Positions 11,828 through 53,701 of a stretch of 64,000 nucleotides of DNA are shown piece by piece (the first letter of the stretch is position 1; each line of letters begins with the position of its first letter). Origin of the DNA: Escherichia coli. Its GTDB lineage: Bacteria; Pseudomonadota; Gammaproteobacteria; Enterobacterales; Enterobacteriaceae. Location: the NCBI RefSeq assembly GCF_003334305.1, contig NZ_QOWS01000006.1; one strand, written 5' to 3'. Under the pieces are notes generated by a model. That model did no database searches. It was not told the DNA's origin and was given only the letters and a program-made list of their open reading frames with translations. The position numbers and the translations under genes are program-made.

Positions 11828-14490
<2,663 letters not shown>

Positions 14491-14533
14491 GGTTTGGGTC
14501 CTTGTCTCTTTTAGAGCGCCTCGCTTCGGGCAT

Positions 14534-14564
14534 AAAAAAACCCGCGCAATGGCGCGGGTTTTTT
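14534..14564 (-). terminator. leu operon attenuator (intrinsic terminator between leuL and leuA)
   Basis: On the transcribed minus strand: hairpin cccgcgccattgcgcggg followed by a 7-U run; lies between the leader peptide stop and leuA start. Confidence 0.85.
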
Positions 14565-14582
14565 GTTTGACTGCGTGCTGGC

Positions 14583-14669
14583 TTAATGCTGGATGCCGCT
14601 CACTCGTCTACCGCGCAAAGAAGATGCGTTTAGTAGTAGTAGACCGATAAAGCGAACGATGTGAGTCAT
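14583..14669 (-). CDS. leuL: leu operon leader peptide LeuL (28 aa, four consecutive Leu codons)
   Basis: [28 protein letters not shown]; the four Leu are consecutive CUA codons (complement of tagtagtagtag at 14631-14642). Confidence 0.9.
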
Positions 14670-14774
14670 TAAATCAGCTCCAGATGAATGCGATATGCTT
14701 TTAGAGTTACTGGATACAAAAACGGATGTCAACCCTGACGCAATAAAAACGTCCCGCCAGCGTGAGTTCTGCAT

Positions 14775-15328
14775 CCGTAAAATTAGCTAATTGTGCTGCG
14801 GTGGTTAAAGTAAGCGATATTAATTTCTGCTTAACTACCGACGCTTTTCATCGGTTGACATATTTCAGCATAAATTTTTGCATCTAATCAACGAGGAAAA
14901 AGGGGACAAAATGCACGCGTTGCAAAACCTATCCTGATGATTTGTATTGAATTATATGTTTTGCGATTTTTTTTGATATTGATTTGGTGAATATTATTGA
15001 TCAATTAATGTTAAGAATTAATGCATTAAATATATAAATTAATTATTAAATAAGCACATTTAATCCATTTTGTAGATGATTGAGTATTCGCGGTAGTTAT
15101 GATTAGATTGTTTTCGCAACAAAAACATTATGGATTATTATGCTGTGGTAAATGACTCATTCCACGGCAATGGATTCTGTTTTTATCAGAACCCGTATCT
15201 TTATGTTTTCCGAATTTTACTCATTTTGCTTTTTCTTATTTTATATGCATGATAAATCATATTCTTCAGGATTATTTCTCTGCATTCCAATAAGGGAAAG
15301 GGAGTTAAGTGTGACAGTGGAGTTAAGT
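14775..15328. promoter_or_regulatory. AT-rich leuLABCD/leuO divergent regulatory region (leu promoter, leuO promoter, H-NS-bound AT tract)
   Basis: About 550 bp of very AT-rich DNA (e.g. attaatgttaagaattaatgcattaaatatataaattaattattaaataagc) between divergent leuL and leuO. H-NS silencing of leuO here is established for E. coli/Salmonella. Confidence 0.7.
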
Positions 15329-16273
15329 ATGCCAGAGGTACAAACAGATCATTCAGAGACGGCGGAGTTAAGCAAGCCACAGCTACGCATGGTCGATCTC
15401 AACTTATTAACCGTTTTCGATGCCGTGATGCAGGAGCAAAACATTACCCGTGCCGCTCATGTTCTGGGTATGTCGCAACCTGCGGTCAGTAACGCTGTTG
15501 CACGCCTGAAGGTGATGTTTAATGACGAGCTTTTTGTTCGTTATGGCCGTGGTATTCAACCGACTGCTCGCGCATTTCAACTTTTTGGCTCAGTTCGTCA
15601 GGCATTGCAACTAGTACAAAATGAATTGCCTGGTTCAGGTTTTGAACCCGCGAGCAGTGAACGTGTATTTCATCTTTGTGTTTGCAGCCCGTTAGACAGC
15701 ATTCTGACCTCGCAGATTTATAATCACATTGAGCAGATTGCGCCAAATATACATGTTATGTTCAAGTCTTCATTAAATCAGAACACTGAACATCAGCTGC
15801 GTTATCAGGAAACGGAGTTTGTGATTAGTTATGAAGACTTCCATCGTCCTGAATTTACCAGCGTGCCATTATTTAAAGATGAAATGGTGCTGGTAGCCAG
15901 CAAAAATCATCCAACAATTAAGGGCCCGTTACTGAAACATGATGTTTATAACGAACAACATGCGGCGGTTTCGCTCGATCGTTTCGCGTCATTTAGTCAA
16001 CCTTGGTATGACACGGTAGATAAGCAAGCCAGTATCGCGTATCAGGGCATGGCAATGATGAGCGTACTTAGCGTGGTGTCGCAAACGCATTTGGTCGCTA
16101 TTGCGCCGCGTTGGCTGGCTGAAGAGTTCGCTGAATCCTTAGAATTACAGGTATTACCGCTGCCGTTAAAACAAAACAGCAGAACCTGTTATCTCTCCTG
16201 GCATGAAGCTGCCGGGCGCGATAAAGGCCATCAGTGGATGGAAGAACAATTAGTCTCAATTTGCAAACGCTAA
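15329..16273 (+). CDS. leuO: LysR-family global regulator LeuO
   Basis: 314-aa product [61 protein letters not shown]... (LysR HTH). Start internal to ORF-track 15152. Confidence 0.93.
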
Positions 16274-16278
16274 CTGAA

Positions 16279-16326
16279 TGCAGAATAGGCCAGACATGAA
16301 TGTCTGGTTTATTCTGCATTTTTTAT
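16279..16326 (+). terminator. leuO intrinsic terminator
   Basis: Extended inverted repeat tgcagaatagg-ccagacat/atgtctgg-tttattctgca followed by ttttttatt. Confidence 0.7.
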
Positions 16327-16590
16327 TGAATGTAGAATTTTATTCTGAATGTGTGTGCTCTCTATTTTAGGATTAATTAAAAAAATAGAGAAATTGCTGT
16401 AAGTTGTGGGATTCAGCCGATTTATTGTCAATTTAATCCTTCGTAATGGAGGATTTTATCGTTTCTTTTCACCTTTCCTCCTGTTTATTCTTATTACCCT
16501 GCGTTTATGTCTCTGGCTGCCAATTGCTTAAGCAAGATCGGACGGTTAATGTGTTTTACACATTTTTTCCGTCAAACAGTGAGGCAGGCC
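16327..16590 (+). promoter_or_regulatory. ilvIH promoter/leader region (Lrp-regulated)
   Basis: AT-rich region with repeated tgaatg/tagaat motifs upstream of ilvI. Lrp control of ilvIH is established; individual sites were not mapped by me. Confidence 0.5.
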
Positions 16591-18315
16591 ATGGAGATGT
16601 TGTCTGGAGCCGAGATGGTCGTCCGATCGCTTATCGATCAGGGCGTTAAACAAGTATTCGGTTATCCCGGAGGCGCAGTCCTTGATATTTACGATGCATT
16701 GCATACCGTGGGTGGTATTGATCATGTATTAGTTCGTCATGAGCAGGCGGCGGTGCATATGGCCGATGGCCTGGCGCGTGCGACCGGGGAAGTCGGCGTC
16801 GTGCTGGTAACGTCGGGTCCAGGGGCGACCAATGCGATTACCGGCATCGCCACCGCTTATATGGATTCCATTCCATTAGTTGTCCTTTCCGGGCAGGTAG
16901 CGACCTCGTTGATAGGTTACGATGCCTTTCAGGAGTGCGACATGGTGGGGATTTCGCGACCGGTGGTTAAACACAGTTTTCTGGTTAAGCAAACGGAAGA
17001 CATTCCGCAGGTGCTGAAAAAGGCTTTCTGGCTGGCGGCAAGTGGTCGTCCTGGACCAGTAGTCGTTGATTTACCGAAAGATATTCTTAATCCGGCGAAC
17101 AAATTACCCTATGTCTGGCCGGAGTCGGTTAGTATGCGTTCTTACAATCCCACTACTACCGGACATAAAGGGCAAATTAAGCGTGCTCTGCAAACGCTGG
17201 TGGCGGCAAAAAAACCGGTTGTCTACGTAGGCGGTGGGGCAATCACGGCGGGCTGCCATCAGCAGTTGAAAGAAACGGTGGAGGCGTTGAATCTGCCCGT
17301 TGTTTCCTCATTGATGGGCCTGGGGGCATTTCCGGCAACGCATCGTCAGGCGCTGGGCATGCTGGGAATGCACGGCACCTACGAAGCCAATATGACGATG
17401 CATAACGCGGATGTGATTTTCGCCGTCGGGGTAAGATTTGATGACCGAACGACGAATAATCTGGCAAAGTACTGCCCAAATGCCACTGTTCTGCATATCG
17501 ATATTGATCCTACTTCCATTTCTAAAACCGTGACTGCTGATATCCCGATTGTGGGGGATGCTCGCCAGGTCCTCGAACAAATGCTTGAACTCCTGTCGCA
17601 AGAATCCGCCCATCAACCGCTGGATGAGATCCGCGACTGGTGGCAGCAGATTGAACAGTGGCGCGCTCGTCAGTGCCTGAAATATGACACTCACAGTGAA
17701 AAGATTAAACCGCAGGCGGTGATCGAGACTCTTTGGCGGTTGACGAAGGGAGACGCTTACGTGACGTCCGATGTCGGGCAGCACCAGATGTTTGCTGCAC
17801 TTTATTATCCATTCGACAAACCGCGTCGCTGGATCAATTCCGGTGGCCTCGGCACGATGGGTTTTGGTTTACCTGCGGCACTGGGCGTCAAAATGGCGTT
17901 GCCAGAAGAAACCGTGGTTTGCGTCACTGGCGACGGCAGTATTCAGATGAACATCCAGGAACTGTCTACCGCGTTGCAATACGAGTTGCCGGTACTGGTG
18001 GTGAATCTCAATAACCGCTATCTGGGGATGGTGAAACAGTGGCAGGACATGATCTATTCCGGCCGTCATTCACAATCTTATATGCAATCACTACCCGATT
18101 TCGTCCGTCTGGCGGAAGCCTATGGTCACGTCGGGATCCAGATCTCTCATCCGCATGAGCTGGAAAGCAAACTTAGCGAGGCGCTGGAACAGGTGCGCAA
18201 TAATCGCCTGGTGTTTGTTGATGTTACCGTCGATGGCAGTGAGCACGTCTACCCGATGCAGATTCGCGGGGGCGGAATGGATGAAATGTGGTTAAGCAAA
18301 ACGGAGAGAACCTGA
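16591..18315 (+). CDS. ilvI: Acetolactate synthase III large subunit IlvI
   Basis: [38 protein letters not shown]... TPP-dependent enzyme, 574 aa; start internal to ORF-track 16507. Confidence 0.96.
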
Positions 18316-51022: not shown

Positions 51023-52396
51023 TTAATGCGCTTTTACGGCTTTGGCGGTTTTCTCTTTAAACAGATAGCCGATACCTAACACGATCAGCCATACCGGGAT
51101 CAGGTATACCGAAATCGCCATTCCTGGGGTCATCAGCATAATCACCAGTACCGCCGCCATAAACAGCAGGCAGATCCAGTTACCCAGCGGATAAAGCAGA
51201 GCAGGGAAGCGAGTTACCACGCCTTGTTCCTGCTTGGCGCGACGGAATTTCATATGCGCCAGGCTAATCATCGCCCAGTTGATTACCAGTGCAGATACCA
51301 CCAGCGCCATTAACAGTCCGAAAGCGGACTCTGGGGCAAGGTAGTTAATCAGTACGCACAACGCCGTTACCAGTGCAGACACCAGAATGGTATTTACTGG
51401 TACACCACGTTTATCGACAGACGCCAGCGCTTTTGGCGCATTACCCTGTTGTGCCAGACCAAACAGCATACGGCTGTTGCAATATACGCAGCTGTTGTAC
51501 ACGGAGAGCGCCGCAGTCAGTACCACGATGTTCAGCGCATTCGCCACAAAGGTATCGCCTAACTCGTGGAAGATCAGCACAAACGGACTGGTATCGGCGG
51601 TAACGCGGGTCCACGGCATCAGTGAGAGCAGAACGGCTAACGAACCAATATAGAAAATCAGGATGCGGTAGATAACCTGGTTAGTTGCTTTCGGTATACT
51701 TTGCTCCGGGTTATCAGCTTCTGCTGCGGTGATCCCCACCAGTTCCAGACCACCGAACGAGAACATGATAATCGCCATCATCATCACCAGCCCGGTGAAG
51801 CCGTGCGGCAGGAAACCACCCTGATCCCACAGGTTGCTAACGGTCGCCTGCGGGCCGCCGTTGCCACTGAATAGCAGCCAGCCGCCGAAGATGATCATCG
51901 CTACCACCGCGATAACTTTGATAATGGCAAACCAGAACTCCATCTCGCCAAACACTTTAACGTTGGTCAGGTTGATGGCGTTAATCACCACAAAGAATAC
52001 GGCGGCAGAAACCCAGGTGGGGATTTCCGGATACCAGAACTGAATGTATTTACCCACGGCAGTCAGCTCAGCCATGGCAACTAAAACGTACAGTACCCAG
52101 TAGTTCCAGCCAGAGGCGAAACCGGCAAAACTGCCCCAGTATTTATAAGCAAAGTGGCTAAAGGAGCCTGCGACAGGTTCTTCGACCACCATTTCACCCA
52201 GCTGACGCATGATCAGAAAGGCGATAAAACCAGCAATGGCGTAACCCAGGATAATCCCTGGCCCTGCGGACTGTATTACGGAGGCGCTACCCAGGAATAA
52301 CCCGGTCCCTATCGCGCCACCCAGCGCGATAAGCTGAATATGGCGGTTTTTAAGGCCGCGCTTTAGCTGCTCGCCGTGCTGTTGACCTTCCATCAT
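51023..52396 (-). CDS. aroP: Aromatic amino acid:H+ symporter AroP (APC family)
   Basis: 457 aa; MMEGQQHGEQLKRGLKNRHIQLIALGGAIGTGLFLGSASVIQSAGPGIILGYAIAGFIAFLIMRQLGEMVV... Confidence 0.96.
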   Translation of the reverse strand: MMEGQQHGEQLKRGLKNRHIQLIALGGAIGTGLFLGSASVIQSAGPGIILGYAIAGFIAFLIMRQLGEMVVEEPVAGSFSHFAYKYWGSFAGFASGWNYWVLYVLVAMAELTAVGKYIQFWYPEIPTWVSAAVFFVVINAINLTNVKVFGEMEFWFAIIKVIAVVAMIIFGGWLLFSGNGGPQATVSNLWDQGGFLPHGFTGLVMMMAIIMFSFGGLELVGITAAEADNPEQSIPKATNQVIYRILIFYIGSLAVLLSLMPWTRVTADTSPFVLIFHELGDTFVANALNIVVLTAALSVYNSCVYCNSRMLFGLAQQGNAPKALASVDKRGVPVNTILVSALVTALCVLINYLAPESAFGLLMALVVSALVINWAMISLAHMKFRRAKQEQGVVTRFPALLYPLGNWICLLFMAAVLVIMLMTPGMAISVYLIPVWLIVLGIGYLFKEKTAKAVKAH

Positions 52397-52466
52397 GAAA
52401 CCTCGTGCGGTGGTTGTTTTTTTGATCTACGCAGTGATGCGTGTGTAAGTTTGCAATTCCGTTTGT

Positions 52467-52484
52467 TGTATTAATTTGTTTACA
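52467..52484. promoter_or_regulatory. Candidate TyrR box upstream of aroP
   Basis: TGTATT-aatttg-TTTACA resembles the TyrR box TGTAAA-N6-TTTACA, ~70 bp upstream of the aroP start. Confidence 0.5.
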
Positions 52485-52888
52485 TCAAAGAAGTTTGAAT
52501 TGTTACAAAAAGACTTCCGTCAGATCAAGAATAATGGTATGAGGCAGCGAATGCACCCGCTTTATGCATGGTTGAAGATGAGTTGCTTAAAAAGAAACCG
52601 TTTGTAAAGCTCAGCCTCAACCCCTCTCAATATGTAGAATGAATTTAAATTCGTTTTAATTGAATTAAAAATCACAAAATTGGTAAGTGAATCGGTTCAA
52701 TTCGGATTTTTATAGTTTAATAATCGTTAAAAAACTCCTTTCCTACGTAAAGTCTACATTTGTGCATAGTTACAACTTTGAAACGTTATATATGTCAAGT
52801 TGTTAAAATGTGCACAGTTTCATGATTTCAATCAAAACCTGTATGGACATAAGGTGAATACTTTGTTACTTTAGCGTCACAGACATGA

Positions 52889-52905
52889 AATTGGTAAGAC
52901 CAATT
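52889..52905. promoter_or_regulatory. PdhR operator (autoregulatory site of the pdhR-aceEF-lpd operon)
   Basis: Palindrome AATTGGTAAGACCAATT, ~30 bp upstream of the pdhR start; matches the established PdhR box. Confidence 0.85.
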
Positions 52906-52936
52906 GACTTCGGCAAGTGGCTTAAGACAGGAACTC

Positions 52937-53701
52937 ATGGCCTACAGCAAAATCCGCCAACCAAAACTCTCCGATGTGATTGAGCAGCAACTGGAGTTTT
53001 TGATCCTCGAAGGCACTCTCCGCCCGGGCGAAAAACTCCCACCGGAACGCGAACTGGCAAAACAGTTTGACGTCTCCCGTCCCTCCTTGCGTGAGGCGAT
53101 TCAACGTCTCGAAGCGAAGGGCTTGTTGCTTCGTCGCCAGGGTGGCGGCACTTTTGTCCAGAGCAGCCTATGGCAAAGCTTCAGCGATCCGCTGGTGGAG
53201 CTGCTCTCCGACCATCCTGAGTCACAGTATGACTTGCTCGAAACACGACACGCCCTGGAAGGTATCGCCGCTTATTACGCCGCGCTGCGTAGTACCGATG
53301 AAGACAAGGAACGCATCCGTGAACTCCACCACGCCATAGAGCTGGCGCAGCAGTCTGGCGATCTGGACGCGGAATCAAACGCCGTACTCCAGTATCAGAT
53401 TGCCGTCACCGAAGCGGCCCACAATGTGGTTCTGCTTCATCTGCTAAGGTGTATGGAGCCGATGTTGGCCCAGAATGTCCGCCAGAACTTCGAATTGCTC
53501 TATTCGCGTCGCGAGATGCTGCCGCTGGTGAGTAGTCACCGCACCCGCATATTTGAAGCGATTATGGCCGGTAAGCCGGAAGAAGCGCGCGAAGCATCGC
53601 ATCGCCATCTGGCCTTTATCGAAGAAATTTTGCTCGACAGAAGTCGTGAAGAGAGCCGCCGTGAGCGTTCTCTGCGTCGTCTGGAGCAACGAAAGAATTA
53701 G
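52937..53701 (+). CDS. pdhR: Pyruvate dehydrogenase complex repressor PdhR (GntR/FadR family)
   Basis: [64 protein letters not shown]..., 254 aa; start internal to ORF-track 52904. Confidence 0.95.

Follow-up and report, generated by a model that had tools for sequence, protein, structure and literature searches.

The AT-rich divergent intergenic region between leuL and leuO in Escherichia coli: composition, conservation and place among H-NS targets

The leuO locus and its flanks

The window analysed here is a 64-kb stretch of Escherichia coli DNA, and the region of interest within it is the AT-rich body of the intergenic region that separates the divergent genes leuL and leuO (Table 1). The gene ilvI is positioned further downstream of leuO, as judged from its ORF and translation. 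Between the leuA start and the start codon of leuO, the window and E. coli K-12 MG1655 have the same sequence, and the coding sequence of leuO shows two base differences from K-12 in its aligned first 72 bp. Window positions are converted to K-12 coordinates by adding 69,039, an offset taken from the alignment. A 901-bp query spanning the region finds a match in 5400 of 5426 complete E. coli genomes at 90–100% identity; six of the matching genomes fall below 95% and the rest are at or above it.

Table 1. Features of the leuL–leuO locus, in window coordinates
Feature	Position	Strand	Basis or remark
leuA	12919–14490	-	ORF and translation
Leu_leader RNA, Rfam RF00512, 145.8 bits	14534–14683		Outside 14775–15328
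leuL, leu operon leader peptide	14583–14669	-	ORF listing, RefSeq, Rfam
Full leuL–leuO intergenic region, 659 bp	14670–15328		RefSeq annotation of K-12 and an identical strain
leuLABCD core promoter: TTGACA (14732–14727), 17-nt spacer, TAACTC (14709–14704)	14704–14732	-	Own reading
AT-rich body of the leuL–leuO divergent intergenic region	14775–15328		GC, curvature, K-12 identity
Marbox, core GCACAATTAGCTAAT at 14796–14782, at the edge of the AT-rich tract facing leuL	14780–14799	-	Published site and conservation
‘Promoter island’ 83898_426, leuL(-)/leuO(+), H-NS-bound	14859–15284		PMC3661553 Table 1 and footnote, offset conversion
AT-richest, least stable core, 15–21% GC per 100 bp	14950–15064		GC profile, nearest-neighbour energies
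Very probable LeuO site I core, ATATTGA-N5-TGAATAT	14976–14994		Likeness to the cas palindrome
Sigma-70-like promoter TTCGCA-17-TATTAT toward leuO, candidate distal promoter	15113–15141	+	Only scan match
Candidate BglJ-RcsB box TGTTTTCCGAATTTT	15204–15218	+	Contains the wwTTCykA core (PMC3950696)
Conserved promoter-proximal block ATATGCATGATAAATCATAT	15243–15262	+	Conservation
leuO, LysR-type regulator, H-NS antagonist, 45.9% GC	15329–16273	+	ORF, translation, RefSeq

A preliminary description of this DNA, made from the letters alone, had named leuL and leuO as the genes on either side. These calls are borne out: leuA, leuL, leuO and ilvI flank the region. The same description had taken 14775–15328 to be the leuL–leuO divergent region, which is right as to identity, although the left edge so drawn lies 105 bp inside the true intergenic region and leaves out the leuL promoter. 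The core of that promoter is a block kept across the Enterobacteriaceae, and its position suggests a transcription start for leuLABCD at about 14697.

At the opposite end of the region, the unit GGAGTTAAGT occurs twice in tandem (15301–15331), with a start codon after each copy (GTG at 15311, ATG at 15329). The two codons are in frame and 18 nt apart. The small duplication codes for (V/A)ELS(M/K)P, and a third copy of the unit, GGAGTTAAGC, is found within leuO at 15364–15373. Since each tandem copy carries an in-frame start codon, an alternative start adding six residues to LeuO is possible.

Base composition, duplex stability and curvature

The 554 bp from 14775 to 15328 contain 30.9% GC, as against 52.7% for the window as a whole. 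Stretches of this length in the window average 52.6% (SD 3.8%), so that the region lies 5.7 SD under the mean, and 0.03% of such stretches across the 64 kb have a GC content as low. The minimum for any 554-bp stretch, 30.5%, is found at 14777–15330 and the region is therefore the exact GC trough of the window. In a 200-bp profile, the dip starts near 14700 and stops at the leuO start codon; at 100-bp resolution, GC content falls to 15% at 14950–15049 and is 21% at 15000–15099. The longest uninterrupted run of A and T, 29 bp, occupies 15025–15053 and a T8 run is located at 14967–14974. Tracts of at least four A/T bases occur at 30.7 per kb in the region compared with 8.7 per kb in the window, and TpA steps and the tetramers AATT, ATAT and TTAA are enriched 2.3- to 5-fold. 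The region had been called extremely AT-rich with long A/T tracts, and both statements hold. Flanking genes of ~51% GC had been described as well; this is close for leuA and ilvI, both at 52.9%, but not for leuO.

Curvature was predicted with the Bolshoy–Trifonov wedge model (Bolshoy et al. 1991). The mean curvature index of the region is 13.5 compared with 8.7 ± 1.2 for 554-bp stretches of the window, placing it in the top 0.45%, which agrees with its earlier portrayal as curved DNA. As it also exceeds the value for 199 of 200 mononucleotide shuffles of the same sequence, the predicted curvature is more than composition alone would give. The highest single peak in the region, 28.6 at 14900, is unexceptional for the window. 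The spectral maximum of the AA/TT steps is at 10.8 bp, a signal matched by 13 of 500 shuffles, and the A-tracts are thus weakly phased. By nearest-neighbour energies, the 100-mer at 14965–15064 is the least stable of the full 64 kb. AT palindromes are densely packed in 14950–15064. We propose this core as the zone in which H-NS would nucleate, by analogy with the AT-rich silencer of Salmonella, and as the place where the duplex would open most easily.

Conservation across the Enterobacteriaceae

The comparative set, drawn from the Enterobacteriaceae only, comprised 80 leuO loci from species-representative genomes, and the leuA–leuO spacer was recovered in 79. The leuA–leuO arrangement is kept in every one of the 79 species with leuA recovered. 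All 79 spacers are low in GC, their lowest 500-bp stretches ranging from 26 to 42% (median 31%) with flanks at 51%. The length of the spacer is 814 ± 21 bp (CV 0.026), and it is 838 bp long here (14491–15328). The adjoining leuO–ilvI spacer (16274–16590 here) measures 376 ± 85 bp in the same genomes, a CV of 0.227, and is thus about nine times more variable.

Mean identity to the window over the 79 spacers is 57%. Even so, the AT-rich body (14800–15190) is better conserved than the 4-fold degenerate sites of leuO, with identities of 0.78–0.79 versus 0.58–0.60 in other Escherichia and 0.54 versus 0.40–0.44 in Salmonella, although the identity of AT-rich alignments is somewhat inflated, random expectation being 0.29. 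Short conserved blocks stand out at 14783–14798, 15199–15218 and 15243–15262 and at the ribosome-binding region. Spacer length is held though most of the sequence drifts, which suggests selection on the geometry of a silenced domain or on the supercoil coupling of the divergent promoters.

An AT-rich stretch of non-coding DNA might be no more than a remnant of horizontally acquired DNA or the outcome of mutational drift, with no selected function. In a published compilation (PMC3661553 Table 1, columns B and C), the locus is marked as overlapping a genomic island and also a foreign gene, both of them predictions, and the GC content of leuO itself is under that of its neighbours. Such an origin is hard to square with an arrangement, a low GC content and a spacer length retained in 79 species, the length being so much tighter than that of the next spacer, or with an AT-rich body that changes less than the degenerate sites of leuO in both Escherichia and Salmonella and short blocks whose distance to the ATG is fixed. 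Horizontal acquisition is rejected as the explanation, the architecture being shared throughout the family, and we consider a remnant or drift origin very unlikely. The conservation of composition, length and short blocks instead indicates that the region belongs to the ancestral core genome and is constrained in composition, in length and, in part, in sequence, rather than being a recent acquisition.

One record titled ‘Chryseobacterium sp. 18061’ (CACSKA010000010.1) carries an enterobacterial leuA–leuO locus, with a LeuO 79% identical and a spacer of 815 bp. Mislabelling or contamination of the assembly is the likeliest reason.

Search for a hidden gene or RNA

Another possibility is that the composition of the region reflects an unannotated gene, coding for a small protein or specifying a small RNA, and not a silencing platform. 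Mechanical ORFs of 22–41 aa are present, an in-frame upstream extension of leuO begins at 15152, and a 40-aa ORF at 15130–15252 has similar ORFs by blastp in 15 other loci. However, each mechanical ORF is intact in at most two of the 79 orthologous spacers and the leuO extension in none, whereas leuL, put through the same strict test as a control, is intact in 52 of 79, with a similar ORF detected by blastp in 77 of the 79 loci. Since none is conserved, the hidden ORFs are rejected. In the RefSeq annotation, the interval from leuL to leuO is empty, for K-12 as well as for an identical strain. A search of 14000–16600 against Rfam (E ≤ 1) returned the leu leader as its sole significant match, and matches inside the region were at chance level only (MIR2629, 19 bits). 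A consensus scan found no terminator-like site within 14775–15328, and no conserved block exceeds 35 bp. A concealed gene is accordingly a very remote prospect. The earlier statement that no ORF is supported within the region stands, with GC content far from the genome norm and neither a conserved ORF nor a conserved small RNA found.

H-NS binding, leuO promoters and mapped elements

The biology of this region is already known, and it is a textbook target of H-NS. The segment 83898–84323 of K-12 (14859–15284 in the window) is listed as bound by H-NS ‘according to all studies’ compiled, by ChIP-chip (PMC3661553), these being Grainger 2006/2007, Kahramanoglou 2011 and Oshima 2006. Comparison with published ChIP data thus supports the suggestion that the DNA is of the kind on which H-NS nucleates, occupancy being documented and the nucleation core being our own placement. 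The 10-bp high-affinity H-NS motif TCGATAAATT has two 8/10 matches in the region, at 14997 and 15031, compared with ~0.7 expected from the window-wide rate, which is no clear enrichment. Over the whole 64 kb, there are 81 matches with up to two mismatches as against 53 ± 7 in dinucleotide shuffles, and the matches of the window are not concentrated upstream of leuO.

Under laboratory conditions leuO is silent through the action of H-NS and StpA (PMC5025477, PMC3950696), as the preliminary description had stated. The gene has at least two promoters, of which the distal P1 is fully active in hns stpA mutants (PMC5025477, PMC3950696). The proximal P2 is activated by BglJ-RcsB from a box centred 57 bp upstream of the P2 transcription start (PMC3950696). 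LeuO is a negative autoregulator that binds >100 bp upstream of the BglJ-RcsB box (PMC5025477, PMC3950696).

Several of these elements can be tentatively placed on the window. LeuO site I at leuO contains a 19-bp palindrome (7-N5-7) that closely resembles, almost to identity, the core site of the cas promoter (PMC6698644). The casA–cas3 intergenic palindrome of K-12 is perfect, ATATTCA-TACTG-TGAATAT, and the sequence upstream of leuO reads ATATTGA-TTTGG-TGAATAT; the latter is very probably the core of LeuO site I. The palindrome is found in 6 of 79 spacers compared with 4 of 79 shuffles, and outside Escherichia it is not conserved above chance. The wwTTCykA core of BglJ-RcsB is matched by TTTTCCGA at 15206–15213, within TGTTTTCCGAATTTT, the candidate BglJ-RcsB box. 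With up to two mismatches, TGTTTTCCGAATTTT is present in 39 of 79 spacers and in no shuffle of 79. The candidate box lies >200 bp from the likely LeuO site, in agreement with the published distance. The conserved block ATATGCATGATAAATCATAT is found in 71 of the 79 orthologous spacers at 76–90 bp from the ATG (0/79 shuffles) and is likely to be the core of P2, a link that we infer from its conservation and position. The P2 transcription start would then fall at about 15265–15271, just past ATATGCATGATAAATCATAT and 57 bp downstream of the candidate BglJ-RcsB box.

A sigma-70 consensus scan of the region gave one site as against 3.3 ± 1.8 in dinucleotide shuffles, and so no excess of promoters. 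The single match, the candidate distal promoter of Table 1, is also listed for leuO by genomic SELEX with the RpoD holoenzyme (PMC3946193). The locus is among the 78 E. coli ‘promoter islands’ listed by Panyukov and Ozoline (2013; PMC3661553), AT-rich and H-NS-bound as others of the class. It differs from them here in that promoter-like sequences show no excess over shuffles; the character of a promoter island is therefore not reproduced by our crude consensus scan, which is much cruder than PlatProm, whose scores define the class.

The marbox at the leuL-side edge

The best-conserved block inside 14775–15328 is 14783–14798, which covers a site for MarA, SoxS and Rob. The marbox consensus AYNGCACNNWNNRYYAAAYN is matched at 18 of 20 positions on the minus strand (14799–14780). 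Its core, GCACAATTAGCTAAT, agrees in every letter with the site reported for leuL<>leuO from MarA ChIP-seq in ETEC H10407, to which purified MarA bound at the lowest of the concentrations tried (PMC5684230 Table 1). The orthologous Salmonella site, GCACAATTAGCTAAA, is near-identical, ending in AAA, and is bound by MarA, Rob and SoxS in ChIP-seq (PMC10268841 Table 1). With at most one mismatch, the 14-mer core GCACAATTAGCTAA is present in 52 of the 79 spacers and in none of 79 shuffles, and its distance to the leuO ATG is always 491–545 bp.

The marbox is centred ~92 bp upstream of the putative leuL transcription start in the forward orientation and conforms to neither class I nor class II. Neither strand carries a convincing sigma-70 promoter at a class I or class II distance from it. 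The literature searched contained no report of a transcriptional output for the leuL<>leuO marbox. A further region bound by MarA is yjjP<>yjjQ, where the promoter region of the bglJ operon lies (PMC5684230 Table 1). As MarA binds at both leuL<>leuO and yjjP<>yjjQ, it could, with SoxS and Rob, prime both nodes of the LeuO–BglJ double-positive loop. Such priming might work through a boundary or counter-silencing role of the three proteins where the H-NS filament ends. We suggest tentatively that the conserved marbox (14782–14796) is a working entry point for stress signals to the LeuO circuit, and would put this on the doubtful side. If true, it would link antibiotic and oxidative stress to the efflux pumps, porins and CRISPR-Cas under LeuO control. 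Although speculative, this reading of the marbox is the only route to something new at this locus.

A silenced, supercoiling-responsive control region

There is little doubt that the region is the known divergent control region between leuLABCD and leuO, silenced by H-NS and StpA and responsive to supercoiling. What was computed here is the base composition, the curvature and instability predicted from it and from sequence, the match to K-12, the lack of ORFs and RNAs, and conservation; occupancy, P1 and P2, and the binding of BglJ-RcsB, LeuO and MarA are taken from published papers. In the mechanism that we favour, H-NS and StpA would nucleate in the AT-rich core and then spread as a filament that masks P1, P2 and many promoter-like sequences, keeping leuO silent in ordinary growth. 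Silencing can be relieved in three ways. One is activation of P2 by BglJ-RcsB, whose box is centred ~57 bp ahead of the P2 transcription start. LeuO, at sites >100 bp further upstream and near P1, limits the spreading of H-NS and autoregulates its own gene. Negative supercoils from the transcription of neighbouring divergent units (‘promoter relay’) would destabilize the H-NS filament on easily unwound DNA. The conserved MarA/SoxS/Rob site at the leuL-side edge may provide a further adjustment.

The supercoiling route, also anticipated in the preliminary description, is documented in Salmonella Typhimurium rather than in E. coli (PMC4264507, PMC6797219, PMC10981669). The promoter relay model is summarized in a review (PMC4264507) and has been extended by later work (PMC10981669). 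The Salmonella nucleation site for H-NS, located upstream of leuO, is called well defined, and in that organism transcription that invades from upstream when NusG is depleted relieves the silencing of leuO (PMC6797219). Supercoiling generated by transcription from 427 bp upstream activates the Salmonella leuO promoter more than 10-fold (PMC10981669).

These observations could be taken to mean that the role of the region is primarily physical, that of a spacer which is sensitive to supercoiling, melts easily and serves to couple or to insulate the promoters of leuLABCD, leuO (and ilvIH), to which H-NS binding would be secondary. The least stable 100-mer of the 64 kb lies within it, the spacer length is strikingly conserved, and activation of the Salmonella leuO promoter by transcription-driven supercoiling is as such a spacer would have it. 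The same Salmonella work, however, reads the effect as relief of H-NS silencing, and hns mutation makes NusG depletion unnecessary (PMC6797219). A mainly physical role is therefore improbable as the primary account, although it overlaps with silencing by H-NS and StpA and does not exclude it.

The reading of raw sequence had thus picked out the lowest-GC, least stable stretch of the window, which is among the most curved and is bound by H-NS in experiments. Its value is that of a positive control.

Relation to known systems

The closest known system is the leuO regulatory region of E. coli K-12 with P1, P2, the BglJ-RcsB box and LeuO sites I and II, which is the same intergenic DNA base for base between the same flanks. 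Stratmann et al. (2012) reportedly describe this region in K-12, including P1/P2, BglJ-RcsB and the LeuO sites. Breddermann and Schnetz (2016) provide a further source on it.

The ilvIH-leuO-leuABCD promoter relay of Salmonella Typhimurium, with its 72-bp AT-rich gene silencer, is reportedly the subject of the work of Fang and Wu in 1998 and of Chen et al. in 2001 and 2005. The locus is orthologous, and its gene order (ilvIH / leuO / leuLABCD, leuO and leuL being divergent across an AT-rich spacer) is present here. The Salmonella spacer is 820–827 bp long compared with 838 bp, and its lowest 500-bp stretch has 30–31% GC. The two loci differ in sequence, ~61% of the aligned positions in 14775–15328 being identical. 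They also differ in that the BglJ-RcsB input is described for E. coli only, unlike the Salmonella relay locus, while the evidence for promoter relay comes from topA leu-500 strains of Salmonella and not from E. coli.

The loci bgl, proU, cas and yjjQ-bglJ have in common with the leuO region AT-rich curved DNA, silencing by an H-NS filament and counter-silencing by LeuO and/or BglJ-RcsB. IS insertions occur in the silencer of bgl, and likewise an IS1 at the leuO region. Unlike recently acquired islands, the leuO region is ancestral core-genome DNA conserved across the Enterobacteriaceae.

Interrupted copies and other AT-rich sites

The IS1 insertion is found in one E. coli isolate (NZ_CM194533.1). 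It lies in the AT-richest core with a 9-bp overlap at 15002–15010, the target duplication, and detaches leuO from the upstream half of its silenced region. In a second genome (NZ_CP065615.1), the match to the 901-bp query is limited to its first 331 bp, on the leuL side and as far as ~14830, which suggests that a rearrangement, a large insertion or a deletion has broken the region just beyond the marbox.

Two further AT-rich parts of the window were noted. The second-lowest GC content, 34.7%, belongs to 52415–52968, the divergent intergenic region between a gene for an aroP-like permease (51023–52396, minus strand) and pdhR (~52904–53701, plus strand); by the K-12 offset, it overlaps the published promoter island 121694_343 aroP/pdhR. 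The leuO–ilvI intergenic region (16274–16600) falls to 30.5% GC at 16300–16499 and contains two of the three top predicted curvature peaks of the window, at 16390 and 16565. It also contains yabR, a 14-aa ORF annotated in K-12 (85467–85511), at ~16428–16472 on the minus strand of the window.
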